DNA from: Blasia pusilla
Taxonomy: Eukaryota
DNA: 64,000 nucleotides
Direction: 5' to 3'
Assembly: GCA_050084515.1 (NCBI GenBank)
Contig: CM114271.1
Span: 24,366,001 to 24,430,000, forward strand
Below the pieces are notes generated by a model, which saw only the letters and a program-made list of their open reading frames with translations, searched no databases and was not told the origin of the DNA. Shown piece after piece: positions 33,551 to 64,000 of this stretch (positions are counted from its first letter, which is position 1; every line of letters begins with the position of its first letter). Both the position numbers and the translations under genes were made by a program.

Positions 33551-35281
33551 ATATAAGATGGATTTGAGATGAATGGGATGACGTTTGAAAGCTTGTGAGA
33601 AAATAGTTCCAATGTATTGAAGATTTAGAAAAATCTAGAGCAAGATTCCAAAAATAATTATAGAACTATTGAGATGATAGTTGGGTTGAGGGCCACAACG
33701 AGAGGTCCAAAAATATTTCCCTAGATAAAGGGAAGGGGTGGATTTCTCCACAACTATATGTAAAAGAGAGGGTGTCCAAGGATGTTTGGAATGCAAATCG
33801 CTTGGGAATGAGCCAAGGGCACGAAAAATGGATTTAGAGTTTGGTTTTGGAGTTTTGACACCATGCCACGTCTTTGTAGTCGGATGATGGATGTCAATCT
33901 TGGACCTTGATCCATGACCTAGATATTGTGTTCTAGTTAGAGACTCGTTCAAGGTCCATGAGGAAATTGGGATCACCGGGCATGCTAGCTTTATACTTAG
34001 TCCTTAGATTATCAAATCTATCCCAAGTTTTGAATGACTTGCTTGTGTTGGGGAGTGAGGGGTTAGATTGATATCTCACTTATCTAGAGTTGGTGAGATT
34101 GAGGGATGATCCAAAACCTAGACTTGGGAGATGCAAGTTTGGTTGACCCAAACTGTAGCTAATTGAGTGTTTGGATGCAGATCAATAAGGAGAGCACAAT
34201 CTATTGAACGTAATATTTCTCAATCCACAAAACGCCGCGAATAGCTAAGTCTCTAACCCATACACAAGTGGGGGATACAGGAAGCGAGTCATGATTGTGG
34301 ATTCAAGGAGGAAAGATCTACCAAAGTTGTAACCTAGACTAGTTAGTCGTGAGACTAGGAAGGGCGGCAAAACCAATTGTGGGACTAACGCCAGGCAAGA
34401 TATGCAAGTCTTGTGACTAGCTTTAGGTGAGAAATGGACGTAGCTATTCCCAAGGACAAAGCTAAGGAAAGCAAGGTTTGAGACCTTAGAGCCAAATGTC
34501 ATGTCAGGGGCGAGAAAGCAAAGAATACATGAGTAGTTAAGATGGGCGAGACGCCATGTGACTGGTCACAAAACGCAAAGGGCGGAAAGACAACCATGAG
34601 ACCCCAAACAGGGAGTCAAGAGGGACGCTAACCAAGATACTTATGAAATACGGGTTCAACATCCAAGATGCATTTGGAGAGCCGAGATTTTCATAAGTTG
34701 TAAGATGCCTCCTCCAAGCCATCTTGATGAATAATTAGTCCAACGTTGGTTTGCGGACCACGAACGACGTTTGGATTGAGAGCCAAATTCAAGGGCCCAA
34801 GCTCGAGTGGGACATTGGGGAAGGTGGGTTTACCCTGAGAACCCGTGAAGTACCTATAGGGGAGGAAATTATACCTCTCTACTTGCTCAAGCCCTTAAGC
34901 CAAGAATTAATCGTAATGATTGTTTGGTTGTGTTTCAAGTTTCAGATAAGAGACGCACCTTGAGGAATTAACTAACGCGCTCTAGTTTATGGAAGATTGA
35001 GTTACAGTCAACCTCATGAGACACCTGAATTACTATATTTGGTACTCACACAAACTAGGGAAGCTTAATTTTGGTTAGTCAATTAAGCACGATTATCTTA
35101 ACTAGGATTAGTTAATCACAGTTGGTCTAACTCGAGATTATGGTTAAGGTTAGGGTTAGGGTTGCTTGTACATACCCTATATAATTAAGAAGAGGACCAA
35201 CCTCCACTCATTCTCTCATTGCAAATTTCGTTCTCCATCAAGGGTTTTCCACCAGTTATGATCGTTTAGCAGTTTTCCACA

Positions 35282-35293
35282 TGGTATCAAAGC
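35282..35293 (+). promoter_or_regulatory. Primer-binding site (initiator tRNA-Met type)
   Basis: TGGTATCAAAGC directly after the 5' LTR. The canonical form is TGGTATCAGAGC. Confidence 0.9.
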
Positions 35294-35797
35294 GGGAGGA
35301 GAATATCACTTGAAATTCTTGGAATTTGAAGAGAGAAGAGAGGTAAGAGAAGGAACAATTTCAGTTTGGGAGAAGGAAATTTTACTCAAAGCTCAGTGGG
35401 TGCAGATTTCGAGTGGAGCTTTGACGATGATAAAACTTTGGAGGTATTTTTTAGGGCTTTTCCGGTTGATTCAACCGTCTGGATCCGTTTCGGCTAGATT
35501 AACGCCTAAGGCTACTTCTAGCCTTCTTGTAGAGCTCGTCAAGAGATTTCCAACATATCTAAAATCGCTCGATTCTGACACTCTAAGCTCCTGCAGTAGC
35601 AATTTCACTGTAGGAAAGTACAATTAGTGAAGAAAAGGTGTGCAGTTTGCTCTCTAGAGGCCAAGTTCGACTAGTTCTTTCATACACTTCATCAATTTTG
35701 GCAAATTTTGGGTCGATTTCTGTGTAGGAGTGGTCTATGCTTCACTTAGAGCAGTAGAAAGCCTGAAATTACATTTTTGTGAGTGAAATCGTTTATC

Positions 35798-38700: not shown

Positions 38701-39957
38701 AGTAAGAAGCGGAGATTCTATCACATAGACGTCAAGAATATCTTCTTCAATGGAGATCTATACGAGGAGATGTATATTACTCAACCACCTGGATACGAGC
38801 ATACCAAGTTTCCATTTTGCATATGCAAGTCGAAGAAATATCTATACGGGCTCAAACAAGCTCCAAAAACTTGGTATGGCAAGATTACATATCTCATACA
38901 AGAATTGGGTTTTAGGGTATGTGATTCTGACTCCTCGTTATATGTCTTGAGAGGACAAGATCATACGATTCTCACTGTGTTGTATGTTCACAATCTCTTG
39001 ATTACTTGGAGTACTAAAGAAATTGTATAACAAGTCAAGCTTAAGTTACAAGCAGAATTTGATATGAAGGACTTGGGAGAACTCAAGTACTTCCTTGGTA
39101 TTGAGTTTATCAAGGTTGGAGAGAGCATGTGGTTACTACAACGACAATATGCTCTTCCTATGATTTCAAAATATGGTATGACGGCTTGTAAGCCAATCTC
39201 TACACCTTTGGACGAGAGTGTGAAGCTAAGAGTGGATGAAGGAGAATTGCTTGCAGATTCTTATATGTACACGCACATGGTTGGAAGTTTGATCTATCTA
39301 AGTATAACCATACCAGCTTTGAGTTATGTTGTTGGCCTAGTGAGCCAATTTATGCAAGCACCTCAAAAACCTCACCTTGATGCTGTAAGGAGGATTATGC
39401 GGTATGTGAAATTCTCTATTCAATTCGGGCTTCAATTCGAACCTTCTACGAGTCTTCAATTACAGGGATTCACATATGCTGATTGGATAGAAAGCGTGTT
39501 TGATCGACATTCCACATCCGGTTATTCATTTACCTTGGGAAGCGTAGCTATAAGTTGGGCTTCAAAGAAGCAACCTACAGTTGCTTTATCTTCATTAGAG
39601 GCTGAGTATAGAGGAGCAACCAATGCAACATGTGAGGCAGTGTGGCTTTATCAATTACTTGTTGAGATTGGTGTTGGTAACTTAGGACCTAGTGTAATAT
39701 ATGCAGACAATATTAGTAGCATCAAACTTGCTAATAATCCTCTGTTTCATGCTCGTACAAAGTATGTTGAGGTGCACTATCATTTTATCAGAGAGAAAGT
39801 GCTTGCAGGAGAAATTGATCTTGTGTATATAGGTATAGATCAGCAAATTGCTCACATCTTTACAAAGGCATTGTCTAGAGATAAGTTTGAGATGTTTAGA
39901 AATGATTTAGGCATTAGAGATATCGATATGAGTTTGAGGGATAATATTGAAGATTGA
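35798..39957 (+). pseudogene. gag-pol: Copia gag-pol, disrupted by stops and frameshifts
   Basis: Gag (KLDKHNYNVWKFRM). Zn knuckle CNYCGIKGHYAKFC at ~36608. PR IDSRASNHIT at ~36821. INT (WHKRIGH...CPACQFGK, FIDDFSR, PQQNGVAER). RT ([22 protein letters not shown]). RNaseH (STSGY...FHARTKYVEVHYHFIRE). Confidence 0.93.
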
Positions 39958-42900
39958 GTTACAGTCAATCTCATGAGACACATGAATTGCTATATTTGGT
40001 ACTCATACGAAGTAGGGAAGCTTAATCTTGGTTAGTCAGTTACGCACGATTATCTTAACTAGGGTTAGTTAATCATATTTAGTCTAACTCGAGACTATGG
40101 TTAAGCTTAGGGTTAGGGTTACTTGTACATACCCTATATAATTGAGAAGGGGACCAGCCTCCACTGATTCTCTCCTTGCAAATTTTGTTCTCCATGGTGG
40201 TGTGTGAGTGTGAGAGCCGTTTCCCACCAATTATGTTTGTTTAGTAGTTTTCTACATGGTTTAGGTGAGAAACTTGGGAAGAATGGTCAACTCTTAGGGA
40301 AGAGGCTTATTAGGGAGATGCTATGCATTTGAGAAGACTCAACCTTATTAGTGCTTGACGGCGTCTCGGCTACCTATGGAATGTGCAACCGGTTGAGTCT
40401 TTGGGACTCGAACTAAGTCTTCCCCTTGCAAAGTTCAAGGTCAAGGGAGCTTCAAGGTGAAGCTAGGGAAAGTGGAGGAAGGAATCTACAATGCAAGGCT
40501 AGTGTTCAAGGGAGTGTATGCATGAAAACTAAATTTAGAGTAGATTTTGGAGCAATAAAATACTTTTTGAGGTGGGATTTGGCTCTTTCCAATCATTCAT
40601 TAAGGAAGACTTTGTTTTCTTTTTTTTTCTCAATTATTTCTTTTTGTTTAGAACTTCTTCTTAAGGGAAAACAAATAGAATACTCTAGACCTTACTCATC
40701 TAAATGTTATTCAATAGAGAAACAGTGTTCATACCCCGAAATTATACAGACTTTGCTCCACTACAAAGATAAACTAGTTGCAAAGTGAGGAGAAGACTCT
40801 TGGAAAGTTGGGAGGAAAAGTGAAAAGAGCGGTGTGGAGATGAGAGGGGAATTTATGGTTGATCGAGGTTCCATTTTATGCAAGTCTTATACAAGTGCCT
40901 TGCGAGTGACTTTGAGTATACTTAAACTTATGAGTTGTATGAGTTTTCTGAGTCTGTTGTGTCTCTTAGCAGTTGGAAGTTACAATACACATGACTCGCA
41001 CTTTGCAAGTAATTTATAAGGCACAATTACAAATCTCAATGTGAGTCTCTTGCATCTAGCGGAGCTTGCAAATATGTAGGATCCACAACTTATTTGCAAC
41101 TGACTAGAAACGTTCAGAATAATTGCAAAATAGATTTGACTTGTATTGGACACGAAAATGTCTCAAAGATTGGCAAAGTTGTTATGCATGTATTACGGTA
41201 CTAGAAGAGGTTGTTGAGAATGGGTATCATCTTTGATAGTTCCGCCCATGATTTTACTCCTCTAGCCTATGCACATGCCAATTTCGCTCCTTCTAAAGAT
41301 TATGGACAATATATTCGAGGATTTGCTCGTATCATGGTAGGAGGTGCAATACATTGGGCCTCAAGGAAGTTCATAGTCAATCCATAATCTGCTATACAGT
41401 CTACTATAAAAGTTGAATATACAACTCTTAGTGAGGCTACCAAAGAAATACTTTGGATTCAATAATTACTTGAGGAGATTAGTTTTCTGCAACAATATTT
41501 GAAAATAATTTATGAAGACAATCAAGTTGCTATTCAACTACCAAATAATTTGTACTCCAATTCCAAGATCCAAAATTTAAAACTTAAATTTTCTTCATAT
41601 CAAAACACATTGAACAAAAAAATACTCATCTTTAAGAATGTAGATCGTCAATTTAGGCCATTTATTTTTTAAGTTGAAGTCTTTCTAAAGCTCAATATTA
41701 TTCTTTAATCCAAATATTAGGATGCAGGAAAAGCAATTGAGTGGGAGATAGGACACTTTCCTAGTAGAAATCAGGAAGTTTTTTTCTCATTTTTCCAAGT
41801 ATATTATTATAGTGTCATGGGAAAGTTAGATAAACCTATTGTAGATAAAGGTTTCAAGATTGACTAAATGTTGGTTTAGCAACTATCTAATGTTGCTACT
41901 CTTAGTGGTTCTCTATCTAGCCACTAGGTTGAAGTGGGGTAGTATATTTTCAAGAAAGGTTTTAGGCTCAACTAAATGTTTTGTTAAGGAACTATCTAAC
42001 ATTGCTACACTTAGTGGATCTCTATCTAGACACTTGGCCATAAAATAGCGTTGTAAAATCAAAAGATTAGCTTTTCTCTAGCCACCATCCAAACTAGTAT
42101 ACAATATGGGGCTTAGATAAGTATACTCTACAAACTTATTGATTTCTCAAACATTAACATACTACGTGTAGAGAGGGCATTACTATTCCCAACAAGATTT
42201 TCTCCTTTGGAGAAACAAAAAAATCATCCGAATAAGACAATCCAAATATATGACATATGTTGGTGATATCGGATGTCATTTATTTCTCCAAATGAGAGAA
42301 TGAAAAAATAAAAATAAGAAAAATAAAAAGAAGCAACGACAAGGAAGAATATTCAAATCTATAATTTTCTCATAGAGGACATGGATTGCTCAATTGGCTA
42401 TTTAGATTTAGGCAAGCATCATTGAGAGGTTTGATTTTTTTTTCTTAATGTGCCCATGTGTGTTCAAGGAATGGTTTTCTTTTGCTTTTGTACCCTTAAA
42501 ATGTAGACATAAGTCATGTATGGTTTATAACATGCTCAAGCCAATGGACTTTTTTAGGCTCCCTCAAACCATGGGAGACATTAGTTTTAGACAACCCTTG
42601 TCGATAGTCATATTTATGTAAGTGTTGTTGGTATCATTTTTTCAAAATTTGAAACTAGATGTAGGAAGTTTCCCCCTTTCCTTCTCCCTTTAACTAGTCA
42701 TGGCCTTAGGAATTCATAAACTCTTAAAATCCCTGTACGTACTTTGGTTGGATGGATTCTCCGATCCACTTGTATTCCAACTAATAAGCTGCCCATGCAA
42801 CTGGGACTCGTGTCCGAGTCCACTGCCTTAGGATTCAGTCAAGGATGTGAAGACCCTACACTCATATGGATGCAAGTTTGCATCGCCATGAGGAAGAGGT

Positions 42901-47274: not shown

Positions 47275-48948
47275 TTACTTCCCTGAATCCAGTGCACCTA
47301 AAGTGTCGTCAAGCATTCTCATCTCCTCTTGATGCAATTTGCACTGCTCTTGCAAGTGCTGCAGTCTTTGAGACATTAGACCAAGCTCAACATAACGGTG
47401 CTTTAGCCACTTCTTCTGCATCTCTTCCTTTGCTGACCTACTGGCTGCGCTGGTATGACTTGGTCCTGCAATCCCGGGTACCAAGCCCTGAAATCTCCAC
47501 AGCTCCGATGCGCCAGGAATGCCTCCAAACCTATGCTCCTCAGCTGCAAGGAACTTGGCTTTCATTTCCTCCATTACTTCCAGACAGCTGGCCTTCAGAG
47601 AATTCAAGAAGTCTACTTTCCAGGGGTTCCCATCTCCTTGAAACTCCTCCACCGTCGGTGCGCTCCCCCCACCGTGCTCGTCCCTGGACCCCTCTTCTCC
47701 TTTCTTCCCTGGTTTCTGCTTCTCATCTTTAGGAAGGTGAGGAGTGAACTCCAGCAGGGGCTTCGAAACAAATGGAGACACTACTGCGCTTTGGAACGCC
47801 TTTTTACCCTCAGTTTTTCCGAGGTTGTTGTTGTTCAACGCGCCGGTCTTCCCTTTCGCGTTTTCTTCTTCATCTTCCTCCTCTTCGGAACTGGAGTATT
47901 CATCTTCCTTCTTCGTTGGCGCCGCTGTCCCAACTGTGATTTTAGTCTGCTTACTCGGAGGTGTGGCCGCTTCGTCATCCGACTCTCCTTCCTCATCTTC
48001 CTCTTCCTCTTCGGGCAACGACGAGCTCACGGCTCGAACTCCATAATTTTCCGGCCCGGAACCCCAAACAACCTCCCAGAGTTTGTAAATTTTCTCCTCG
48101 TGTACGTTCCTGAATGGATTTGGTAGTTCCGCTTGTAACTTACCCGCCAGAACAGCATATCTCGACTTCATGCGCCTAACCTTTTCACTGAGCTGCTGCT
48201 CAGTGACTTCAAATGGTATCGCCTTTGACTGTAGCAAGGTTCGCCAGTAACTATCATTCTTGGTGTTGGCGATTTTCAATCCAGCCCTCTTGTCTTTAGA
48301 AAGCTTCGTAGCAAGCGCAATCTCCGAATCCGCTGTCCAATGCGCCACTTTCTTTACCTTCACTGGAGACTTCTCGCTTTCCCCTTTAGTTAATACAGGC
48401 TTCGCATTTCCATTCGGCGACGGTGACGATGCTTTCCGCTTCCTGTTTGCCGCCGCAGCTTTGGCAACCTCCCCTTTCACACCCGGCATGGGTTTCGCCT
48501 TCTCTACTTTCGGTGCTGGTCCTTTGCCTCCTTTCGGCGCCACTTCAGCCTTCGGTGCTTTGGTATCTGCTCTCACGGGAGATGCAGGCTTCAAAGGTTG
48601 GATGCGTGCTTTCTCCACAACCTTCGTCTCTCTCTTCTTCTTATTCGCAGGCTCCTCCGCCAAAGCTTCCTTTCCACCATTGGCATCTCTGTTCCTCTTT
48701 CCCGCAGGATTATCCAAGACATCAACCTTCCCTGCTGCACTCAAATTCCCCTCCCTCCGCACTGTCGTGAACCCTTCCCCCTCATCGTCGCTCTCCGACT
48801 CTTCCTCCTCCCCTTCCTCGGACTCCTCCTCGTCCTCGTCCTCCTGGACCTTCGGCTGCACCGGCTGCACACTGCTTCTCGTTTCCTCTTCGTCCGACTC
48901 GCTCCCGGACTCCTCACTACTCGATACTCGCTTCGACTGGCTAGACAT
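47275..48948 (-). CDS. GeBP-like: GeBP/STOREKEEPER-like (DUF573) transcription factor, 557 aa, intronless CDS
   Basis: Long intact GC-rich ORF, first ATG at 48948 (MSSQSKR). Acidic Ser/Glu N-terminus. DUF573-like core WTADSEIALA...EQQLSEKVRRMKSRY...FRNVHEEKIYKLWEVVWG. C-terminal helix KKWLKHRYVELGLMSQRLQHLQEQCKL, as in GeBP proteins. Confidence 0.88.
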   Translation of the reverse strand: MSSQSKRVSSSEESGSESDEEETRSSVQPVQPKVQEDEDEEESEEGEEEESESDDEGEGFTTVRREGNLSAAGKVDVLDNPAGKRNRDANGGKEALAEEPANKKKRETKVVEKARIQPLKPASPVRADTKAPKAEVAPKGGKGPAPKVEKAKPMPGVKGEVAKAAAANRKRKASSPSPNGNAKPVLTKGESEKSPVKVKKVAHWTADSEIALATKLSKDKRAGLKIANTKNDSYWRTLLQSKAIPFEVTEQQLSEKVRRMKSRYAVLAGKLQAELPNPFRNVHEEKIYKLWEVVWGSGPENYGVRAVSSSLPEEEEEDEEGESDDEAATPPSKQTKITVGTAAPTKKEDEYSSSEEEEDEEENAKGKTGALNNNNLGKTEGKKAFQSAVVSPFVSKPLLEFTPHLPKDEKQKPGKKGEEGSRDEHGGGSAPTVEEFQGDGNPWKVDFLNSLKASCLEVMEEMKAKFLAAEEHRFGGIPGASELWRFQGLVPGIAGPSHTSAASRSAKEEMQKKWLKHRYVELGLMSQRLQHLQEQCKLHQEEMRMLDDTLGALDSGK

Positions 48949-51096
48949 CTTCGAAGAATAGACCAACGTCCAGATATCCTACCGCGAAAATGTCCGCTCC
49001 GCTCCGCCCCAAATCACAACGACCAAGAACGCAATTGATCGCAAACAGGCGAAACGTCAGTGCATTTTTCCTTCCAACGTAGACTCTGCTCCCCGCAACC
49101 CTATCGGCCGAGGAACCACACGCGCTCCTCGTCTCTCCCCACTCCGCGAAATCACCCTCGAAACGCCCTCGCCTTCGACTTTCAAAAACCCTGGACAGAG
49201 ATCGTGACATAAGTCCCTTCCCCTTCGTGCGTGGAGCGGGGGCGCGGGTAGCGGACCTCAAGCATGGCGTCCCGAGACGTGTTTTCATCCTCGGCAGCAT
49301 TCCGTCTATCCATCCGTCCTTCCGTCCGTCCGATTGTCAGTCAGTCAGCATTTCATACGAGTTACCGTTGGCCAGAAGGGATTTATTTGGAAACCCGGCC
49401 GGGAAACTTTTAAGATTTCTGAAGCTTACCGGACCTTCTGACAATGTTCCCGGCGCTAATTTCTTTACTGAATTGTATACCCGATCAAATCTCCAGGAAA
49501 GACCCGACCGTTAGTGACGGTCGTCGCCGGAGGCCCACCCACTTGCGAAATCCTCCCGACCAGGTCGTTCCGAAAATTTCACCTCTGTCGCTACCTACTG
49601 TAGGATCTTCCCTGCGCATTCCGTCACGTTCACAGCTCCTGTGGCCGACTGTTCCGTCCCGCCCCGCCCGTTAAGGGCGCAAGGTGCTTGCAGTTACACT
49701 CTCCCGCTGGACAATCATGAACGTTCACGCCGCCAGGTACCAGAGGCGACTACGGACGGCACCCTGGAGGACCCCCTGTTTGTGTAAGGCCTGCGACCGC
49801 GCAACTACGCTGTACATGGAAATTCAGCTTTCCTTTCCTTTCCTTTCATCGAACACACTCACGTCTTGTACTCGCTACTTCGCTACTCCGCCACCGTCCC
49901 TGGCACCTGGGACGACTATTCTGTCGGTCTGCCATCAACTGCAACGGCTCTGAAAAATTTCGGGTTGGGACATGAGAATCCATCCATGTGTCGATCCGAG
50001 GCGACCGCTTCCGTTTTTGAAATGCCGAAGGCGGCTCCATTGCTTGCTTTACAGGCGGGTGGCAGTTGTGGCCCAAGGGGTCAAGGTTGTTGCCGGTCAT
50101 GTTCAGGTGGTAACCGAAGTTAGCTTGATGGATTTGCTGGCCACTCCAATCGTAGGCGGCTTGTGGGCTCCAACAAACCCACCGATGCACTTCATTTTCT
50201 TTTCCACACAAATTACGCATTCCAAATTCATTTGATTTTTGAGAGCCATTGTATGGATTAGGGAAGGGACCATGGAAGGAGGAGGACTATGGCGTAGATG
50301 GAGGGACGTCTAGAATTTTGTTTATAACTATTTCCATGATGACCCAATCTTTTCAATCTAAAACCCAATGTGTTCATCTTCTCGAGCTTGAACTTTGGGG
50401 TCTTCTTTTTTCCATTTAAGATTGAGTTTTCCAAAGTTCTTGGGATCTTTGGACCTCCTTCTCTCCTAAATGTGCTCGTAGATTCCTATACGCAATTTCA
50501 CACATAGAGTGATATTGGGTTACCATCGATTTGAGGGATTCCTGTGGCTTTTCTGGATCTTTTGATATGGGCTGGGCCCAACATTACGAAATCATTCTCT
50601 CATAGCAATCATTGGTGGGTGGCTCACTTACTCCTCACATCCTCTTTTTGGGTGTTTACAATTTCTTTCATAACTTTCTTCTGGTGTTTGGACTTGTTTC
50701 GATCATCTTGATGAGCTCGTTCTTTTCATATCAAATAGGTTTGCTAGTTGTTCTTCCTTCTCCGTAGGCGCCTATTTTTTAGTTCAGGTTTATTTTAGAT
50801 CAATTCCTCCCAAAAAATTTCCTTGTTCTTTCAACTCCTTACCTTACTATTTCGCCCCTACATACGTTTGCCATCTCCTTAAGGACATAAGAAATTCTTA
50901 TTCTTGAGCCACCTCTTCTGATACCATATAGATCACTTTTCCTATTCAATTGTTTTTTATATTTTTCTTATAATAACTTTCAATCATAAATTCAGTATTG
51001 TCTAATCTTCTTCTCTCCATCTAAATTTCTTTTGGACGGATTCCACTACTTTTGTTTTTCTAGTTATCCTCATGCTTTCTCCAAACCACGTTTCAT

Positions 51097-54000
51097 ATGT
51101 CTGCCCTTGTCTTCGATGACTTTCCTACCTTTGCTTCTATGTCATCAGAGATGGAGTTGGATTCTCCATCTACTCGCTTATCTGGTTTTACACGCCCTCC
51201 TACAACCGTAACATCTCCCCCTTGTTCACCTCCTCATCGTAGATCTCGTCATTTTCCTCCAAATGCTAATACACCCGTTACACTCGCTGCATTTCTTCCG
51301 GATTCTCTTCTTCTCCCCTCTTTATCTTGTCCTATTGAGCCTAATCTTGATCCATTATTACCAAATCCTTCTATTTTGCCATCCCCACATATCTCTCTAT
51401 GCTCTTGCTTCCAACTCCCATCTATTCTACCCGAATATCCCCTCTTCCTCCTCCTCCTTCCCCAACCTACTTAGCCCCTCATCATCATCCATCACCACCT
51501 CTTGCACCTCCCACCTCCTCTCCTTGTAACCCTTCCACTTCTCTATTTGTACCAAAGGTTCGTAGCATACCTTGTGGTAAGGAGTTTGCTCCTAATGGGA
51601 TCAAAAGACATCAGCGGTAGTGTCGATCCATGCATGGGCCTTCAATCCCTAACCCGATACCACCTCCTAATGCACTCCCCACAACAACTACTTGGACTTG
51701 GTTAAGCCAAATTGATCTCCTTCGCTCCTCCATTTAGGTCTTCCTCGTCTTAGACTCTACACTCACATTCCTATTGCTCTTCGCCCATCACCCAACAAGC
51801 TTTGCTTTTCCCATTAGAAAGGTTAGCGCGTGATCCCACAAATATCAATGCTTGGTATCTCCTATTATTCTTCCCAAAATGGATTTTAGTCCTCCCCTCC
51901 AAGGGGTGATGTGACAGGTCATCGTGAAACCTCCACACGTATTCAATGCTTTATGTCAGGGGATTGGGAGAATCTTCAGAATGAGCGTGTACTTCGAGCA
52001 GAGGCCTTAACTACGGCTCATCTGTCTTAGCATGCCAATAATGGGAGGCCATCAATACAACAACGCCTTCGAAAAAGTCTACTTTTGGGGCAGGTTGGTG
52101 AGTTTTCACGTGTAGCTTGAGCATTGGGTCCTCTTTCTCCGGCGGTTCCAAGTGCAAAAACAATGGCTCTCTTAGAAGCTCTTCACCCTCCTTCAAGTGG
52201 CCATGCTCCACCTTTTGTGGAAGAGTATACAACAGAGCTTGACTTGGAGGTTTTCACAAGGGCTTTTTTGCATATTCCTTGCTTATCAGCAAGCGGACTA
52301 TCATGGATGGTTTTTGAGCATCTTCGCGATTGCTTTATCCCGACAGATTCAACAAGTGGCTTTGTCTCTCTATATAAGGTGTGTGCATATATGGCGGCAT
52401 GCCGTCTCCCGTTCTCTATCTCTAGGCTCTTAGGGGTTTGTCGTTTGTTGGCTATGGATAAGCCTCCTTCAAGTGTGCGCCCATTGGCTATTGGAGAGGT
52501 TTTATACTGCTTGGTTAGTCGATCCCTATGCTTGCAATTTTGTCCTCACTTTAGTGCCCACTTATTTCCTCATCAATTTGGAGTGACAACTCCTAGAGGT
52601 TGTGAGGCTGTGGTGCATGGGATCCGTTCCACTCTTGATATTCATCCAGATTGGGTGGCAATTCAAGTCAATGTGGCTAACGCATTCAATTCAGTTTCTT
52701 GTGCGGCCATCTTTGAGGAGTTACGTTGTGCAGGAGGACAACTTGCGATCCTCATTCCATTTTTTTGCTCCTTCTATGCCTATGATACGCCCATTATCTA
52801 TTCTCATCCTTCCGGAGAATATAATATTCTACAATCGGCTTGTGGCCCACTCTTTGCCATTGCCCACTTTCGTGCCCTTCGAGCATCAATGCAAGCATTT
52901 CCATCTTTTCTTTTCTCTTCTATTGTTGATGACACTCATATTATAGGTCCTCCTTGTGAAGTGGTTCCTGCTTATACCCATTTTGTGGAGCAACTCTCTT
53001 TCTTAAACCTTAAAGTCCAACCTAGTAAATGTTGAGTATGGTCTCCTTCATGCCTTCCCTCAACATTCATCCCCCCTACTCCTGATTTTCCCATCTATAT
53101 TGAAGGGATTAGGGTTCTTGGGGTCCCAATACGCTTCATCGACTATGTCTCAAAGTTCTTGGATGAGGCCTTTTTGGAAGACGTAGAATGGCTTCATTTC
53201 TTACCTTATCTAGGGGATCCCCAAGTGGCTTATGGGATTCTCTCCCAATATTTTCTACGACGTCCTTCCTACCTTCTTTGCACTTGTCCTCCCACTTCAA
53301 GGTTCTTACATTAGTTGGCCTCTTTTGACGCTTCTATATTGGCAACTTTTTGTCAAATTCTTGGCCCGAATACATTTGAGGGAGAGGATGGTGTCTTTGC
53401 TTCAAGACAAGCTATCTTGCCTATTTGTTTTGGAGGAGTGGGACTTTCCTCCACAATCGCATCTGCTCCCGCAGCCTTTTTGGGGACTTGGGCGTTGGTA
53501 GCACTGATTATGGCTTCAAGGTTTCTCCAAGGAAACACACCTATCTTGATGGATCATATCGCCCATGTAGAGGAGGGGGACTTGTTATTTCAACAACAAC
53601 TGAGATATGCACGAGCTCTTCTTCCTCTTGCTACACAAGAAATTCTACCCCCTTTCAATCAATTGATTACGGAAGGGCTTCATCAACTTCAAGAGCATAT
53701 ATCCGAGAATCTGCATCAAATCAACTTTTTGAGCATTCTTTCCAAGGCATCCTCTGACGCTCATCGAGCTCGTATGCAATCATGTGCGGGTACCAGAGCG
53801 GAGGCGTGGCTTACTGCAAATCCTCTTATTCTTCCATTTTTTCTTCCTCGAAGTATATTCTCGATAACTTTGCGGTTACGTCTTGGCCTTTCCCATCCTT
53901 CTCTATTAGGTGTGCCGAATTGTATATGCGGGGATCCCATTGATGCCAAGGGTATCTATATTCTCCGCTGTGCATATGGTGGAGAACGAACGCGCACACA

Positions 54001-54589
54001 TAATGTCATTAGAGAGGCAGTAGCATCGGTAGCTTGTACTGTAGGATACACCGTTGGGCAAGAGCAACTCCATGTCCTAACTTCAACCATACAAGCAACC
54101 TCTCGTCGGAGAGTGGATCTTGTTATGTCTCGAGGTGGATTCCGGATACTAGGTGATGTGGTGGTTACTGATCCAACACGTTCTGAATTGGTATGTCAAG
54201 CCGCACATACCAAAGGTTTGGCGGCTGAAGCTACAGCAAGAATCAAGGAGTTAAGTTATAATGTGAGATATGCGACTGATGGATTTATTCCTTTTGCAGT
54301 GGAAGTATTCGGTCATTTATATGTGTCTTTTGATACTTTCCTGAAAACATGTGCTCACCACTCCCTTGAGAATCACCACCTTGCCCCTTCCCGTAGTCCT
54401 TCTCTCTCTGTAGTTACTACTTATTTTTGGCAATGCATCTCAGTGGCCTTACAACGTGCATAAGCATTGGCATTGATACGTCGTGTGGAGGTGGTGGGGG
54501 GTCGCTCGCCTCGTCGTCCATTCACGTTTGACCAACCACTCGTATTCTTGTCATATTTGTTTCACGCTATCAATCGCGTAGCTCGTTGA
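51097..54589 (+). mobile_element. CRE-like non-LTR retrotransposon (Zn finger-RT-CCHC-RLE single ORF), pseudogenised
   Basis: N-terminal Zn finger SIPCGKEFAPNGIKRHQR*C at ~51564-51623. RT motifs RPLAIGE, PHQFGV...GCEAVVH, NVANAFNSV, IVDD (the QGDP segment is deleted). C-terminus CICG...YILRC, RTHNVIR, RRVDLV...GDVVV, KELSY, FIPFAVEVFG. Terminal stop at 54589. Confidence 0.85.
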
Positions 54590-55296
54590 GTTGGTGTTTA
54601 CGTTGGCTAGTTGCCATTTTCTTTTATGCACTTTTTGACTCCTCTTTTGAGATGTTCTTACCTTTCTTTGTCCTCTTTTGAGGTTTATTTTATAATAAAG
54701 AGGATATATCACTTAAATTCATATCAAAGTTCTATTTTGATAAGCCTATTAACATGATTTAAGTGGTTAGTTTTCAAGACATGTGAAGCGTTGCATGAGC
54801 ATAATATAAATTTTTTTGGTTAACCTTAATTTATATTGCCAATTTCTCATGTTCTTTTTCCCATGGAAGATTTGTTTTTTTAAATTTCTCATTTTATCCC
54901 CTCCAAGACTGTCATACCACTCTATATGGTAGAAGTTCCCACTAATATTGACATGAAGCACATATGTTGAATTTTGATTGGAGATTCATTTGAGGTATAT
55001 CCGCACCCATGATTGTCAAATGCGATCAGGCAATCTTAAATCCTTAGACTATCAAGGAAGTCTTGTCCAAGTTTTGAATGACTTATTTATATTGGGGAGT
55101 GAAGGATCAAGTTATTATCTGACCTTGCTTAGGATTTTTTTGCGTTAGAAGTGACCCAAGATCCAGACTCAAGAGATGTGATGCTAGTTGATTGTAAACT
55201 GGACAAATATATGAGTACGTTTTGCAATTGAGTGAGTGGTCTACTAAATGCTAGCTTTCGCAACACCAATGTTCAAGAGAGTAGGTACACAATCAT

Positions 55297-56304
55297 TGTA
55301 TAAAATTTCTAAAGAAGCATAACTGGTGGGATACGACTCTCACACTCACACACCACCATGGAGAACGAAATTTTGCAATGAGATAATGAGTGGAGGCTGG
55401 TCCCTTTCTCAATTAAATAGGATATGTATAAGCTTTCCTAATCCTAATCCTAACCATAGTTAAAATAATTGCACTTAATTGACTAACCAAGATTAAGCTT
55501 CCCTACTTTGTGTGAGTACCAAATGTAGCAGTTCGAGTGTCTGATGAGCTTGACTATAACTAAGTCTTCAATACTCCCCCTTAAACTCATATCGATATCT
55601 CTAACATCTAAACCCTTTCTAAACATCTCAAACTTATTTCTAGACAATGTCTTGTAAAGATATCATCAATTTTCTGATCTGTACCTATATACACAAGATC
55701 AATTTCTCTTACAAGCGCTTTCTCTATGATAAAATGATAGTACATCTCAACATGCTTTGTTCAAACATGAAACATAGTGTTATTAATAAGTTTGATGCTA
55801 CTAATATTGTCAGCATATATTACACTAGGTCCTAAGTTACAAACACCAATCTCAACAAGTAATCAATGAAGCTACACTTCCTCACACGCTATATTGGTTG
55901 CTCCTTTGTACTCAGCCTCTGTTGAAGGAAAAGAAATACTTTTATGTTGCTTCCTTGAAGCCCAACTTACAACTGCGCTCCCTAAGGTAAATGAATAGCT
56001 AGATGTGGAGTGTCTATTAGACACGCTTCCCGGCCAAACATAATCTGTAAATCCCTATAATTGTAAACTCGATCAAGGAAGGTTCAAATTGAAGCCCCAA
56101 TGGAACGGAGAATTTCTCATACCGCATAATCCTCCTCACATCATCAAGGTAAGTTTTTCGAGATCCTTGCATAAATTGGTTCATTGGGCCAACTACGTAG
56201 CTCAAATGTAGCCTAGTTACAGTCACATAGATCAAACTTCCAACCATGCACCTATACATATTAGAATCTGCAAGCAACTCTCCTTCATCCACTCTTAGCT
56301 TCAC
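55297..56304 (-). mobile_element. Truncated copia (RT end, RNaseH, 3' LTR 55297-55573), cut by the gypsy element
   Basis: VKLRVDEGELLADSNMYRCMVGSLIY matches 39220-39300. The LTR is the reverse complement of the 39945 LTR. PPT AAGGGGGAG on the minus strand. Confidence 0.9.
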
Positions 56305-56618
56305 TGTCGTGCGCATACATATCGCTACACAATATACATCATTGTCATCGAATATACACACAAATACGCGCGATCCCATGCTAACTCATGACATCCAAAC
56401 AATGAGACAAGAAGTACCAAAATATCTCCTATCGCCCCTCTAGCTGGCGGTTAGGTCCCTCTAATTCTAGATAGCCATCTATCCCTACCTACCATGATAT
56501 ACATCTCTCGGATGCTAAGAGCAAAAAGATCGGATGCTCATATGGGCCCATCGTTAGTCGCCTTCTTGTCATCCATGTCACAGACACAAGTCAGAATCTA
56601 GAACTACCTACTCTATGT

Positions 56619-56757
56619 ACATCTGGGACACATCGATGCATCATCCCTGAGGAACCCTAGTGAGAGATGACGTCAAACATGCCATATGCCATCCCCTCAA
56701 ACATCCATCATAAACTAGCATAGTGGTTGCAACACGGGCATAACCACATAACATACA
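56619..56757 (-). pseudogene. PHD finger (C4-H-C3) at integrase C-terminus
   Basis: CMLC...MLVYDGC LRGWHMAC LTSSLTRVPQG, then a frameshift, then CPRC. One Cys has become Tyr. Confidence 0.85.
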
Positions 56758-56999
56758 TCGCAAGTCTCCAGGAACTACTGCTAAGCTCAGATCAACTCTG
56801 CCATCAATGTTAGGAAGGTGAAATGGCACACAGTTACGCACATGGTCCTTCCAAACCATACCATCGCGTCCCTCCAATAAGAGAACACGAAATGGCAAAA
56901 TCTCATGCACTCTCAAGATGGTGCGCCCTGTAGTCACATCCAACGTCGTGGCTGCCATTTTCTACAAGTAGACATAGTCTCCCCAATGAAACCTCCGAA

Positions 57000-58203
57000 T
57001 AGTCAGTCGATAACCACCTCCCCAAATAGTCGCATACCTCAACGTATCCCAATGTTGCGCAATTGCCAAGTTCTTAAACGTCATGGGCATCACTCTCTGA
57101 AACAACTCAACCCTCTAAGACCATCCTCGCATCCATACATCAAGGTAATCAAGGTTCAACATCTCGCTAACATCTTGACGAATGGCCGTAGGTAAATCCG
57201 GCTCTCAACCTTAAAGTAGCAAGTACAGTGAGAAAGACCCTGAGGATGCATGCGTGCTGAATCTGTATCCCATTGCCAACCAAGGCAATTGGAGATCCCA
57301 ATCTTGTAAGTGACCTCTATGCAAGCCATACTTGCGCAATCCTCTCTTCACCATCTCCACAACCCTCTCCGCTACTCCATCTGCCTCAAGATGATCTTGC
57401 GAAGTGGAACGGTGGTCAATGTATGCATGATCACACGAGGCTGAAACTCCCCATGAAACTATATATCCAAGTTTTTCAACACCTCAGTAGGTGCACCGCA
57501 ATGACTCAGCACTCGATCTAGGAAGGCATACGCTACTCCCTCACTTGCTCTGTCAAGCAATGCAACCAACTCTAGAAGTCGTGAACTCTAGAACTCTAGA
57601 AGCGGTGATGGTCGAGCACTTCGAGAAGTGCTCGACCATCACCAACATATAACGAATATAGCGCTCTGTCAAAGATAAAGGTCTTGCAAAATCCAAACTC
57701 CATATATAACTTAAATCCATGATCGAAAGTGGATGCAACTGTGGAGTTGGAGCATTGAACGATGCCCTGACCCGATCACAAACTATGTACCTGGCAATAA
57801 ACTATTGAACGTCAGTCTGCATGCCTCGCCACCAATACGGCATCTGGAGCAAGCTATACATCCGCTTCACTCCAAAATTCCCCAACTCCTTGTGGGCATG
57901 ACGCACCAAACGTGCTCTCTATGAAGGATGAGGCACTACTCGTACTCTACCATCCTCCCAAACTTGCAACACATGTGTCCCCTCCCACCAGAATCTTTTA
58001 GCTCGATGTAGGATCTGATCCCGCTCTCTAGCACCCACTATGCTCGCGACGGTGCCAGTACGCAGATACTCCAAGACCACTCCATCGTCGTGAATATCTC
58101 GGCCACCTGTTGTCTCCTCACCAACCCCTGGATCTAAGGACTGTTCATCAGATCTCGCCCTCGAAGTCTCAACACTCAGATTCTGTAAAGCCAACAAGCC
58201 CAA
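57000..58203 (-). pseudogene. Gypsy integrase (HHCC + core), disrupted
   Basis: AHKELGNFGVKRMYSLLQMPYWWRGMQTDV...CDRVRASF...LHPLSIMDLSYIWSLDFARPL...MLVMVEHFSK. Confidence 0.85.
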
Positions 58204-58377
58204 ATAGGCTGACGCGTGCTATCCTGGCACCAACTCCTCATCACTCTCACCATTCCAACGAGCTCGAGTCGCATCTCGCTCACTCAAGCATGAGTTACGG
58301 CTCAAACCATCTGCATCCTGGTTGAGCGTCTCAAATCTATGCACCACCTGGAAATCATACTCCTACAACAACATGGC

Positions 58378-59719
58378 TCACCTCGCAAACTTCCATGTAA
58401 GCTTGTCGGACTCCATCAACCACTTAAGTGGTCGATGATCAGTAATACTGGTAAAGAGGTTGCCGAATAAATGACACCTGAAATGTGCAACATCCCACAT
58501 TGCAGCCAAGCACTCACCCTCATATGAGCTATACTTTGTCTCTGCAACGTTGTTCGAGTGACTAGCGTAAGCCACCATGAGCTCTCTACCCTCATCGTCA
58601 TGTTGGGTGAGCACGGCTTCAAGCCCCAACATTCTCCAATCTGTATGCAACAGGAAAGGACACCCCCTGATTGGTCTCCTCAATATGGGCACAGATGTCA
58701 ATCTGTCCTTGACCAGCAGAAATGCTATCTCTTGCTCATCCCCCTAGGGCCACTCCCGACCCACCTTGGCCAGCAAGGTCAGCGGCTTTGCAATCAAAGT
58801 GAAACCCTTGACGTACTATCGATAGAAGTTTGCCAATCCCATGAATGCACAAACTCGACTCACATCTGTAGGGCGTGGAATGCGTGAAATAGCCTCTACC
58901 TTTGTCTGTTGCACACCAAGGACCCTTTGGGTATATCGTATGATCCCCGTACTCAATTTGGTTGTAGAAGAACTTGCACTTGCCTAGATGTAGCTTTAGC
59001 CCATGTAACTGCAATCGTCGAAATACCTCCTCTAGATGTTGCTCATGCTCCTCAACTGTGGCGCTAAAGACTATGATATCATCAATATAACACCTCGCAG
59101 AATCCAAACCTGCCAAGATCCTATCCATAACCCTATGAAACTCAGCCGAGGCATTCTTTAACCCATATGGTAAGAACCGCCACTGGTACAATGAATCCTT
59201 CTTGTGAGGATCGATGTCCCAAAATTCCGTCTTCTGCCTCTCCTCCAATCTGATAGGCTGCTGATGGTATTTGGCTCAAAGATCTAAAGAATTGAAGACC
59301 TTTGCATGCCCAATAGCATCAAAGATCTCCTCAGGGATGGGCATGGCATACCTATGGGACTTCGTATGCGGATTGATAGGTCGGTATTCTCCATACATCC
59401 ACCTATGCGTCCAGTTGCCATGCATATCCTTCTTGGCGGGCATGATAGTGGCAGATGCATACTCTCCATGCGACATCTCTACTAGTCCTACTCCAACCAA
59501 GTCCTGGCTCCTACTTTGAATTAGAGCCCTCTCCATGTCACTGTACTTGTAGGGTCGTCGGAAGATTGGCGTGTCACTCGACAACTCAATGTGGATCCCT
59601 GGATCCTTCAGCGTACCCAAATCATGCATGCTAAATGCAAAACAACTCCTATAACTCTTAAGGAACTCATATATCCGGCGCCGCTTTCCTCTTGTCAACT
59701 TGGGCTCCCAAGTCTCCAT
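58378..59719 (-). pseudogene. pol: Gypsy RT and RNaseH, disrupted
   Basis: PIFRRPYKYS, YRPIN...YAMP...FNSLDL, LPYGLKNASAEF...YIDDIIVFS. RNaseH LHTDW...VAYAS...YEGECLA...ITDHRPLKWL. Confidence 0.93.
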
Positions 59720-60059
59720 TGTGACTATGGTAGGACTCTCCGATGTGGGTGTCGGTGGTTGCTATGATGCAACCTCGTCTCGAACAATAGAACTCGATTG
59801 CTCCCCTGCAACCATTTGCAAACTTTGATCTCCACATGTAGTACTCGGAACCATGCTCAATGTTGTGGCTATCATCTCCCGACGTACCCGCAAAACATCC
59901 CAAGAAGTCCAAGGGTGTCTCTCCCAATCACCCTTGGTGTATCGATCACCTCGGGTCTCACCCCCTTCCATTGCCTTCACCGTCTTGGTAAGCATGGGCT
60001 CACCAACGCAACAACTGTAATCTGTCGCAACCTCAAACAACATTGCTCAGCCACTCCTA

Positions 60060-60930
60060 AGCTGAAAATCCATGTCCAGGAGTTCAGGTCTATCGCCTGA
60101 CCCAAGACATGACATCGTGACGCCTCTAAGAGTGATATATTGTTGTCAGTCTTGTGGGGAATCCCATCGCTTGCTCTCGCTCATTGGCGTTAGGCTCCAC
60201 CAACAGCTGTACCTGGTCATCCCAAACTAAGCCAGGTCCGGCTTCCTTGAATGCATAGGAAGCGGGAAAACTCACCAATGTGGGAAAGGCTGCTCTTTGC
60301 ATGCCAATCCTGTTGACCACAGTCAACGACGGTCGATCATCGTGCATCACTACATGTGATTGACGACCTGGATCCAGAATAGGATCCACCAACAAATCGG
60401 AGGGGCGCTCCACTCTTGCATACGCCCTCCACAAAACCTCATGTGGCACCAAGTTGGTCCACCAAAGACACGGGCGATGCGCTCGTGAACCTACACTCGC
60501 CGCATCCAAAAACATTGCTAAGCCGATCCATGCGCGTACTTTGAGACTGATGCTCATGTAAGTGTCGCAAGATCCGCATCATCTCCCAAAACAACCTAGA
60601 CCGAGAGTCAGCTAATCCACTACCCAATCCAGCACTAGACTGGCCCTGACACGGCCAACCAGCAATGACCAAGTCCATGATCCCTACCCACTCCAAGTCC
60701 TTCACCCCCAACAATGAAATGTCCCTCGGTAGGGAACTCTAGTATCCCTGAATTTTGGACGTAGATAACAAGGTGGGAAATCAGAGGCGTAAGTGCGCCA
60801 TATGCTGACATGAAGCACATCTGGCAACCTCATCAACCTCCACGTGTAGGTATTGCAGCACATGCACTTCTGCCTGCAAAACAATAGCTAAACCAGTGTT
60901 AATCTCTCCAAAGAGACCTAGCATGCGAAT
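60060..60930 (-). pseudogene. C5 cytosine DNA methyltransferase domain, DNMT3-like, inside gypsy pol
   Basis: Motif I IRMLGLFGEINTG. Motif II YLHVEVD. Motif IV DLVIAGWPCQ (catalytic PC). Motif VIII LDAASVGSRAHRPCLWWTNL. Motif IX EREQAMGFP. Motif X VLGQAIDLN at ~60105-60080. Motif VI (ENV) is lost in a deletion at ~60545. Confidence 0.9.
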
Positions 60931-61270
60931 ATCCTCCTCTAGGATGCACCAGACAATCGGGGTGGTGTTTAAAGGGGTCATAGTAGCACTCCTGGCTACC
61001 TCGGGTTCCTCTGATCCGTCACGCTCCATGCGGTCTGCATATGCTCAGCGGCTAGCGTCAAAGCTCCTTAGTCGAGCCCCAAACCGGCACCTCTCCTCCA
61101 CGGACTAATGGGCCTACCATGAGACTCCTCTCCATAGAAATGTCAAGAACGAGAGTCTCCTCTGCCTGGACATATCCCTCAATCAAATCACTAGGCCAAA
61201 TGATGGCACTGCTAGATGCTGCTAAGGTCGCCATCTCTCCTGGTCGTCGCTCGATCACTCCACCAATGAA

Positions 61271-61798
61271 TCAAATGGGTAATGAGCTAAGGCACCCATC
61301 ACCTAACTGCCATCCTGGTATGTAGGACGTTGACTCCTCCCAATAATCCAGGGAAAACCCCATCATGTACAATACTGCTCTACCAACCAAGACGTCGTAC
61401 GACTCGGCATCGGTTGCTATCGCCTTGGGTCGCACCACAGACTCATCAGTAGGATATCCCGGGCGAATCCTCACCACAACCTCCTGTTGGATGATATACT
61501 GTGTGGTACTCGCTCCACCCAAGGATGTATGTATTCGGAATGGAAAATGCTCCATATCGGCTCTTGTCAAGCCCAATCCTCTGAATGCCGCTTTTCCCAA
61601 CATCAGGGGTTGCACTCATGAATCCAACAAGACGCGCTGCGGTCTAAAAACTCTACCTCTTAGACTCACCAACTGGAAAACCTCTCCTTGGTTATCCAGT
61701 AATACAACACCAGGAGAAGCCATGGCACGCTCTATCGCGGGTCTAGCAGGCATCTCCGCCATCCTAGCAGCCGCAGCTTGCCATGAATCTGAAGCCAA
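61271..61798 (-). pseudogene. Gypsy aspartic protease region
   Basis: RVLLDS*VQPLMLGK (DSG with GGA>TGA) ... YDVLVGRAVL. Confidence 0.85.
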
Positions 61799-61928
61799 GC
61801 ATAGGCTCCAAGAGCATGTCCATCACCTCCTCTGCAATCACCCTTAAGTGTGAAGCAGGAACACCAACTCCATGCTCACATAGCGTAGCGGTCAGCTAGA
61901 AAACCTTGGCCGGCATACCTCCCAACGT

Positions 61929-63205
61929 TGTCGTGTCGAGAGCCTTTCTTCAAGTAAGGGCAGGCCTTCTAGCTACGGCAGACACGGTCGATGCAAGATG
62001 AATTCTCTGAGAAGACCTCCTTTTTCAATATAAAATTATTATGTATACTCTCCATTCTCTCACGACAGGTATCACAAATGGAAGTGCCAAGGCGATCACT
62101 TCTTCGTAACATTGAACCCCGAAATTCCTAACTATAAAATCCCTATAAACTATTTTACGCTTGTATACGAGGAAGATAGCACAACTAGTATTAAACCCTA
62201 CTTGAGCAGGCCTATTGACGTCCATGGATTGTTATATAAGGACATACAAAGTACAATCCCATGTCCTTTCATATGTGACGATAGGAAGGATCACCGGAGT
62301 TGGAGATTGAATGATCTGGTTCATGAACGCCTCCCCAAAGTGATAAACTACATAGCGAGTGAACCTGTGCCTATCTACAAAGAGTATCTTGACATGATAT
62401 GGATTAAGGAAAGGAAAGTCGGACACAACTCGTGCTCCACCCCTATCCATGCTTGACAGACATTTTCTACTCTCCTCAACAATGGGTTTTGGCGGAGTTA
62501 TTCTCCGAAGAGGGGTAATCCACTCTCATTGGGAAAGTAACAAGCCAAAACATTCACTATTTTAATATGACTAAACTCCTCTAAGGTGACAACCCTCTCA
62601 TCTCCACACACACATCACACTCTAGAAACCTCTCGAATAATAGACCATGGTCAAGTTACTCTCCCAAGAGGGGCGATCCGTTCTCATTGGAAGAGCAAGC
62701 AATCCCAAAGTCATACACTCAAGAGTGACACGAAAGACTCAAGATGTGGAATAGAAGGTGATGAACCCTTGAAGGTCCCTCCTCTTTATATACTCACAAG
62801 AGATCCACAAGAGTACGAAATAGAGCTAATCGTATCTTGTGCCACATGGCTTCCTCTCAAGGCTTAGCCAATCGCATTTTGACACAAATAGATTTCCTCT
62901 TATCTCTTCCAAAATATCCTCTTTTACCCACTTGATATTTTCCAAATTACCCCAACTAACCTAGCCACCAACCAAGCCTACTTTTGCTTTTCATTAAAGC
63001 ACCGACCTCACTACTTTACTTTTATAAAGTCATCTTTTATTTATTACCTCTTTTCTAAAGTTAGGCCCGCATAAAAGAGGCACCATAAAGAGGTTTAAAC
63101 ATGGGGATTTATTTTTCCTAAGCTAATTTACTTAATACTAATAAAACTCTATCTAACACTTAACGAGGAAGGAGTTTACACACTGGCTGATTTTACTATA
63201 CGACA
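61929..63205. mobile_element. Solo LTR (~1277 bp) nested between gag and PR of the gypsy element
   Basis: Inverted termini TGTCGT...ACGACA. Flanks ACGT/AGGT. A partial second copy lies at 11802-12102. Confidence 0.8.
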
Positions 63206-64000
63206 AGGTCATAACATTGGAAGCAGAAAATAAAGGAGTGGGGCATACAACAGTGGTTGCCCCGAACAACGTGCTCGACACATGCTCCTCCTGAACATCA
63301 GCAATAGGAGTCATCGCACTTGCTTCTCCCATCGCCCTCCGTGCATGCACACCAACAATATCACCAACACTCCGGGAACTCTGATCAGGACCCATCGATG
63401 GGGTCCTCATCGCCTCGGACAATGTGAAAGACTGAGGAAGCCTTGTCTGTTTCCTAGCTTCCCCTCGCTGTGGATCCAACTATGCGGCTACTCCATACGT
63501 AACAACTGCGGTGGCCTCCATCTGGGCAACCCCGCACATCCAACCAGGATCCTCCATATCTCTAGCTGCTCCATAACACGTTGATGCCACGGATCCGACA
63601 TCGAGTAACCTAAATGCCATGTCGGAAATCTACTGTTGTAGTTGTTGTATCTGAGCAACTATCCCAACCTCACGCCCGACGTCTCTCTCAACGCGTCTAG
63701 GTGGTGGAACTCTACCTCCTCCACGGGCAACTCAAGTTCTTTGTTCCCCAACGGGACCACTGGGTGCACGACCTCTAGGCCCACCCAGACCGGCAACTTG
63801 CTCTAGTGTCCTCTTTGGCCCTCATTCTGGACATACCTCACGGTGCAAGCTGAAACACGTGTCACGTGTGTGACTGTACCTCTGAAAATAGTCACACTGA
63901 TAACCTCCTGGTGCAGCACCATCTCCTCCTTCATGTTAAGGCACGCGTCCATGACCCTCACAAGTGCAATGATGCTGGTGATAGGCTCCACCACATGCCC
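63206..64000 (-). pseudogene. gag: Gypsy gag C-terminal region with zinc knuckle
   Basis: Minus-strand frame YQCDYFQRYSHTRDTCFSLH at ~63903-63844, a CX2CX4HX4C knuckle with one Cys changed to Phe. Confidence 0.75.

Follow-up and report, generated by a model that had tools for sequence, protein, structure and literature searches.

Positions 56619–56757 of the minus strand, in the 64,000-nucleotide stretch of Blasia pusilla DNA that we analysed (hereafter the window), are a decayed PHD finger that forms the last part encoded by the pol region of a retrotransposon and lies in frame after the SH3-like region of the integrase. The element is a dead Ty3/gypsy copy with the order gag, protease (PR), DNMT3-like C5 cytosine methyltransferase (DNMT), reverse transcriptase (RT), RNase H (RH), integrase (INT) and PHD. 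Judging from protein sequences, the combination of an integrase–PHD fusion with a DNMT3-like domain is a conserved architecture of this family and is widespread in the green lineage. We lean, if only slightly, towards a model in which the finger would tether the intasome to histone H3 tails unmethylated at K4, biasing insertion to silent chromatin. Chromoviruses are the standard case of a retrotransposon reading histone marks to pick its landing sites, and an integrase-fused PHD finger points to a second, independent solution for histone-guided landing. The interest lies in the family architecture, the window copy itself being an ordinary dead relic: the family is large and still transcribed, its range takes in green algae, liverworts and mosses, and a DNMT3-like enzyme is among the proteins that it encodes. 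Marchantia and similar plants, with their good genetics and epigenome maps, offer a testable system for chromatin-guided integration and for methylation enzymes borne by transposable elements (TEs).

Frame 2 of the minus strand reads through the finger as ...RCMLCGYARVATTMLVYDGCLRGWHMACLTSSLTRVPQG and then runs into a TGA. The motif string quoted in the earlier note is present on this strand, with the first two ligands (C1 and C2) in CMLC, C4 in DGC, and the histidine and C6 in WHMAC. Seven of the eight zinc-ligand codons survive, and the eight ligands do not share one frame: ligand 3 is Tyr (TAT, 56710–56712) in place of Cys, and the TGA (56641–56643) cuts the last pair, C7 and C8 (CPRC), off from the rest of the finger. 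MCPRCT, followed by a TAG, sits in a different frame, with the C8 codon at 56619–56621 (Table 1); the related proteins P0004, P0005 and P0009 end 1–3 residues past their last Cys in the alignment. The interval that had been assigned to the PHD finger, 56619–56958, proved too wide, since its greater part (56758–56958) is the SH3-like end of the integrase and only the part given above is the PHD proper. Its placement in frame at the integrase C-terminus held up: 58920–56644, covering RNase H, integrase and PHD, aligns to P0009 in a single frame over 761 columns at 54% identity (tblastn). An HMM search with PF00628 matched the 106-aa window ORF with an E-value of 0.0051 over profile positions 1–34 of 47, but at 17.2 bits the relic scores below the Pfam gathering threshold of 24 bits. 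The window PHD is a relic, not a working finger.

Table 1. Features of the PHD-bearing element and of its 3′ flank, listed in the direction of the element
Feature	Coordinates in the window	Strand	Basis
Gag fragment; element runs beyond the window end	63387–63995	minus	tblastn to P0027 residues 305–490
About 1.4 kb without family homology, between gag and protease	61983–63386		tblastn gap, P0027 residues 490 to 522
Aspartic protease region	61061–61786	minus	tblastn to P0027 residues 584–828, and to P0020
DNMT3-like C5 cytosine methyltransferase, frame-broken	60144–60987	minus	PF00145, E 4.1e-9; tblastn
Reverse transcriptase	58922–59755	minus	PF00078, E 1.9e-19; tblastn to P0009 residues 2–287
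RNase H	58378–58743	minus	PF17917, E 2.2e-23; PF17919, E 4.2e-22
Integrase, interrupted by in-frame stops: zinc-binding region, catalytic core, SH3-like C-terminal domain	56761–57990	minus	tblastn to P0009 and P0004
Relic PHD finger (C4HC3)	56619–56757	minus	translation, Pfam, alignment to intact relatives
TAG stop two codons past the last Cys, making the PHD the end of the pol frame	56613–56615	minus	translation; relatives
Family sequence 3′ of the stop codon	56305–56612	minus	read depth
Flanking copia fragment (pol end and 3′ LTR), outside the PHD element	55297–56304	minus	self-BLAST

By Pfam and tblastn, protease, RT, RNase H and integrase follow one another in the order of a Ty3/gypsy pol. 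With X written at the stops, the window integrase is 65% identical to that of P0005, while the window DNMT is 57–59% identical to Marchantia Mp_4g09160 (P0027) by tblastn. The alignments of pol and gag to relatives revealed 26 in-frame stops in the window copy, together with seven frame changes between gag and the last Cys pair. Family sequence does not end with the pol stop codon: over 56400–56713 the depth of the same-species reads described below (~2400–2800 for DNA and ~140–275 for RNA) is unbroken past it. The copia fragment that follows is 81% identical to 39220–40256 (self-BLAST). We found no direct or inverted repeats of at least 40 nt in 50000–64000, the 5′ end of the element lying beyond the window and its 3′ side being cut by copia at 56304. 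The proposal that this copy sits inside another TE is at best partly right: a copia fragment adjoins the 3′ side, and the 5′ end is beyond the window. Between gag and protease, a foreign piece of ~1.4 kb interrupts the element. The end of this piece, a 304-nt repeat end at 61926–62229, recurs in the opposite orientation at 11802–12105 (88% identity, self-BLAST). One of the two adjoins the gypsy element and the other a copia fragment, and they probably represent the terminus of a third TE with two insertions. The ORF at 62034–62453 had no Pfam match.

As query for relatives of the finger we used the 186-aa stretch encoded in one frame by 57198–56641 of the minus strand, with its three stops, two of them TAG, written as X. 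Against longer proteins it gave 13 matches (E 2.9e-75 to 2e-30), the named ones coming from Marchantia polymorpha, Calypogeia fissa and Sphagnum fallax. In 12 of these 13 closest proteins PF00628 follows PF00665 (rve) as an intact terminal PHD; the remaining one is a fragment that breaks off within the finger at a contig end. The identity of the domain as a PHD is settled by these intact fingers, in which the alignment reads, for example, C-MLC-G...MLVC-NSC-SRGW-H-MSC-L...IPDGQWFC-PRC. Intact members score 31.4–44.6 bits with Pfam (P0004, P0009, P0010, P0030, P0039, P0044, P0046, P0082 and P0125), and P0104, P0124 and P0159 are matched by the family profile and not by Pfam at E 1e-4. The family-finger profile located the domain in 195 of the 295 proteins gathered, and all eight zinc ligands are complete in 180 of the 195, most of the others being cut at an end; as this set was collected with finger-containing queries, the counts speak of conservation and not of frequency. 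In the bryophyte-type relatives the finger is the last domain, with 3–28 residues beyond it. A PHD match, a finger in frame with the integrase and fingers in intact copies were all found, the three points on which the earlier note had staked its reading. In one annotated Marchantia gene, P0002 (MARPO_0060s0038), the end of an integrase with a truncated PHD is fused to part of the DNMT; it is a gene model spanning decayed TE fragments.

Reads carrying the species label of the window (one DNA run and three RNA runs) were aligned to 56400–61100 at a likeness of at least 80%. With ~1.97 billion letters read, DNA depth was 1500–3600 over the part from RT to PHD and 500–2500 over the DNMT part. Since a single-copy locus in a plant-sized genome would be expected to show a depth of 20 or less, the family must be very high in copy number; 83220 of the 97689 DNA reads were less than 90% alike. 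For reads whose first mate lies on the plus strand, RNA depth was ~85–275 over RT to PHD and ~12–90 over the DNMT part, against 0–17 for those whose first mate lies on the minus strand, which suggests, by the usual library convention only, sense transcripts of the minus-strand element.

The same reads also bear on the lesions of the window copy. Four window letters at 56635 are missing from 1284 of 1603 DNA reads (~80%) and from 86 of 103, 97 of 142 and 87 of 107 reads in the three RNA runs (68–83%). By letter count, copies without these four letters have the CPRC codons in frame with the rest of the finger. With CPRC in frame in most copies, the frame break is a lesion peculiar to the window copy or confined to a minority of the family. 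For transitions, the window has A/T where the reads have G/C at 359 of the 720 places listed, and the reverse holds at 136, a bias that fits decay by C-to-T change; deamination of methylated C may lie behind such decay. An instance is the Ser codon at 56670, with 1231 of 1294 first-mate-plus DNA reads carrying the letter that gives Pro, like the LTPP of relatives. Over 57574–57617, in the integrase core, about half of the DNA reads and many RNA reads skip 42–44 letters and carry 2–4 others, a place at which the window copy differs in length from much of the family.

The co-occurrence of PHD and C5-DNA methyltransferase across family members, suggested in the earlier note as a check, was borne out both in the window and beyond it. 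Using P0009 (RT-RH-INT-PHD) as query against 1.84 billion representatives, we analysed the best 150 with custom profiles and detected the finger in 70, the DNMT in 57 and both in one protein in 49. The finger is C-terminal in 64 of the 70, and 49 of these 64 have the DNMT in the same protein. Among the best 150, the order RT-RH-DNMT-INT-PHD was the most frequent (38 representatives plus 6 partial), followed by RT-RH-INT-PHD (12), RT-RH-PHD-INT (6) and the window's own order DNMT-RT-RH-INT-PHD (5); the remaining representatives were PHD-less fusions, with several pol copies each. Pfam confirmed the domain orders on 24 representatives, where two RT-RH-PHD-INT proteins were found to carry a Dam adenine methyltransferase. 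A C5 methyltransferase domain inside the gag-pol coding region is thus seen in the window, in Marchantia gag-PR-DNMT proteins and in those 57 representatives, and the RT-RH-INT-PHD type may have its DNMT in an upstream ORF, as the Marchantia proteins illustrate. When the DNMT-INT-PHD part of P0046 served as query, PF00628 was present in 116 of the 120 relatives listed, the query itself including the PHD; the named matches were Haematococcus lacustris, Monoraphidium neglectum and Chromochloris zofingiensis. Our labels ‘chlorophyte’ and ‘bryophyte’ for the types rest on these few named matches. The solved chains nearest to the relatives' DNMT are DNMT3A, DNMT3B and DNMT3C (E 6.5e-7 to 1e-4), with M.HhaI behind, and the PCQ and ENV motifs are kept in intact relatives. 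Two gypsy polyproteins among the representatives, P0154 and P0170, have PR, Dam (PF05869), RT, RNase H, PHD and integrase in that order, a pairing of a PHD reader with an adenine methyltransferase. The window also holds a second, more diverged DNMT-bearing gypsy fragment on the minus strand at 8710–10202 (DNMT 9587–10202, RT 8710–9219), with RNase H pieces at 1032–2048 (minus); its integrase–PHD end would precede the window start.

An integrase tree of 102 rows was built by a quick method with the PHD columns left out; it contains no reference chromovirus and calls for caution on stars. In this tree a single group (SH-aLRT 95) takes in 81 of the 84 rows that bear a DNMT or a C-terminal PHD, so the C-terminal finger is a trait common to the clade. 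The window falls in a 23-row sub-clade (SH-aLRT 96) together with the bryophyte-named proteins and the order that has DNMT before RT; the chlorophyte-named proteins, and with them the order RH-DNMT-INT, are found in a 51-row clade (SH-aLRT 89). Rows that lack a PHD, or have it before the integrase, are on the other side of the tree. The DNMT occupies two places in the clade, and the tree would fit either one capture followed by a move or two captures.

From the architecture of the family, in which an intact C4HC3 finger lies past the SH3-like domain of the integrase at the end of a flexible linker of ~20 residues, we propose that in live copies the finger would tether the integrase, and with it the intasome, to the N-terminal histone H3 tail. 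The H3 target would most likely be unmethylated at K4, and the tethering would favour insertion in silent, gene-poor chromatin, the effect that chromoviruses obtain with their chromodomain. A second accessory, placed separately, would be the DNMT3-like domain: in the bryophyte type, to which the window belongs, it is encoded upstream of RT, ~3.4 kb from the PHD, and because RT, RNase H and integrase lie between the two, finger and DNMT would probably end up on different mature proteins in this sub-lineage.

An AlphaFold model of P0003 (mean pLDDT 76.5) comprises the catalytic core, a long helix, the SH3-like barrel, the linker and a compact PHD. Its pLDDT is ~86 in the barrel, ~54 in the linker of ~20 residues and 74–87 in the PHD, and in this predicted structure the finger looks like a module on a tether. 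The solved structures that best match a family PHD are those of CHD4, PHF12, PHF21A/BHC80, DPF2/3, KDM5 PHD1, KAT6A/B, ATXR5, UHRF1, BAZ2A/B and AIRE (E 2e-16 to 1e-8), with KMT2D, WSTF and ORC1b also among the best matches. We take these solved PHDs to be readers of the unmodified H3 N-terminal tail; H3K4me3 cage readers of the ING/BPTF type were absent from the 60 solved matches listed. With such readers (PHF21A/BHC80, AIRE, CHD4, KDM5 PHD1, BAZ2A/B, UHRF1 and ATXR5) the family finger shares C-D-x-C, G-[WYF]-H and P-x-G-x-W, whereas they are host chromatin proteins and not parts of an integrase. Across the family PHDs the Asp after C3 is kept in 175 of 195, and G-[WYF]-H and the P-x-G-x-W loop are conserved. 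An acidic loop before C3 (D/D/E, three columns) is common in the chlorophyte type and in the alignment is mostly replaced in the bryophyte sub-clade, for example by SARDAAR or EKKGAAT, which weakens the case for a K4me0-specific finger there. Both DNMT-gypsy copies in the window sit among other TEs, as is to be expected in any repeat-rich region.

In chromoviruses, Ty3/gypsy elements such as Tf1 and MAGGY, the integrase ends in a chromodomain (Gao et al. 2008, cited by the texts of PMC6673714 and 10.64898/2026.05.21.726589). The present family resembles them in having a small histone-reader module past the integrase SH3-like domain, with the same proposed job of steering insertion by chromatin state. 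It differs in that the module is a zinc-binding PHD finger, with no chromodomain in the relatives scanned, and in that the mark read by chromoviruses is H3K9me, while the likely one here is the unmodified H3 tail. KnitGypsy-Dnmt3 of the streptophyte Klebsormidium nitens, by its description in PMC5890265 (de Mendoza et al. 2018), likewise has an unrearranged DNMT3-like domain embedded within its Gypsy pol; compared by that description only, our family differs in occurring in bryophytes and chlorophytes and in having two DNMT positions. The text, legends and three supplements of that paper make no mention of a PHD, the terms ‘PF00628’ and ‘KnitGypsy’ are absent from the three supplements, and no K. 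nitens sequence was among the named matches of our protein searches.

The available text of a 2026 preprint (10.64898/2026.05.21.726589) names ‘streptophytes (Gypsy-DNMT3)’. The EpiLTRs or DAM-LTRs that it describes are, like the present elements, LTR retrotransposons with chromatin-reader and DNA methyltransferase domains, but the domains there are a chromodomain, Dam and a DNMT4-like enzyme in place of PHD and DNMT3-like; that text makes no mention of PHD. PHD fingers in retrotransposons are in print for CR1 LINEs and for Chlamydomonas REM1 and Gypsy-7a_cRei, and the text of PMC8557442 calls the PHD a common accessory domain. Gypsy-7a_cRei and REM1 are, as far as these sources describe them, green-lineage Gypsy elements with a PHD finger in pol, as here, but with the finger before the integrase (RT-RH-PHD-INT); a legend in PMC9940879 gives the order PROT, RT, RH, PHD, INT. 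Of our six representatives of this order, the two that were scanned both carry Dam and not DNMT, and the order falls outside the clade with a C-terminal PHD. Retrotransposon PHDs and Gypsy-DNMT3 are thus each already in print, while the literature searched yielded no text that joins an integrase PHD to a Gypsy DNMT3, and none that reports the family from either bryophytes or chlorophytes.

A different role for the finger, following the coupling idea of the earlier note, would be to act in concert with the DNMT of its own element, much as the ADD domain serves animal DNMT3, such that the cDNA or the insertion site is methylated in H3K4-unmethylated chromatin only; we consider this speculative and unlikely. 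It draws on the sharing of one protein by DNMT and C-terminal PHD in 49 of 64 representatives, on the high PF00628 count among the relatives of the PHD-containing P0046 query, and on a DNMT that is closest to solved DNMT3A/3B and keeps its PCQ and ENV motifs. The chlorophyte order RH-DNMT-INT-PHD, moreover, makes a single mature DNMT-integrase-PHD protein conceivable. Taken to its full extent, the proposal is that an old Ty3/gypsy clade spanning chlorophytes to bryophytes, with a DNMT3-type writer and an H3-tail PHD reader, rebuilds the ADD-plus-methyltransferase logic of animal DNMT3 within a mobile element. In the chlorophyte type the one mature protein would land in chromatin unmethylated at H3K4 and immediately methylate either the new copy or the sequence around it. 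We give this version, too, a low probability; if true, insertion and methylation by one protein would amount to a self-concealing strategy. Against a coupling of this kind, the window type has its DNMT before RT, with three domains intervening before the PHD, and related elements pair the PHD with Dam or with no enzyme, so the PHD does not need the DNMT. Furthermore, according to the text of PMC5890265, among the domains tested in yeast only SymbioDIRS-Dnmt3 gave de novo methylation. For the sub-lineage of the window a functional PHD–DNMT link is possible, but less likely than tethering.

It is similarly improbable that the PHD-type finger has a non-histone role, be it in integrase multimerisation, nucleic-acid binding, nuclear import or the binding of a host factor. 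The evidence for histone reading covers fold and ligands, and the acidic loop is largely gone from the bryophyte sub-clade, both of which leave room for such a role. Against it, every one of the best solved matches is, on the assumption made above, a reader of the histone H3 tail, and the family conserves both the Asp that follows C3 and the P-x-G-x-W loop.

The wording of the earlier note, in which the PHD finger ‘replaces’ the chromodomain, is apt as an analogy of position, since the finger occupies the place that the chromodomain has in chromoviruses (as described in the text of PMC6673714). Taken literally, as a chromovirus whose chromodomain was swapped for a PHD finger, we rate it as doubtful, and a little more so than the two readings just discussed. 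Pfam detected no chromodomain (PF00385) in the window ORFs or in 35 relatives (11 + 24, from the best 150 representatives), 12 of them PHD-less, and none in P0063 and P0089, the PHD-less integrases that adjoin the clade in the tree. Finally, the ideas that the Cys and His pattern arose by chance, or that the window copy alone caught a host exon, can be dismissed with near certainty: the window copy taken alone does score under the Pfam threshold, but homologous intact fingers are present in 12 of the 13 closest proteins and in 195 proteins overall, and same-species read depth over the finger is high.

A further 57 ORFs of the window gave Pfam matches to copia, LINE-like and gypsy fragments and to one host gene only. 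This one apparent host gene is a 567-aa open frame on the minus strand at 47278–48978 with a GeBP-like DNA-binding domain (PF04504, E 1.3e-10), which points to the genome of a land plant or of a close relative. A near-complete copia element at 34988–40260 has LTRs of ~300 nt (34988–35285 and 39945–40260) and matches to gag, protease, integrase and RT, and further copies of the copia LTR are located at 3001–3311 and 55295–55573. On the plus strand, 52121–54460 contains long open frames with a weak RVT_1 match (E 1.9e-4) beside a copia fragment, and is probably a LINE-like element.
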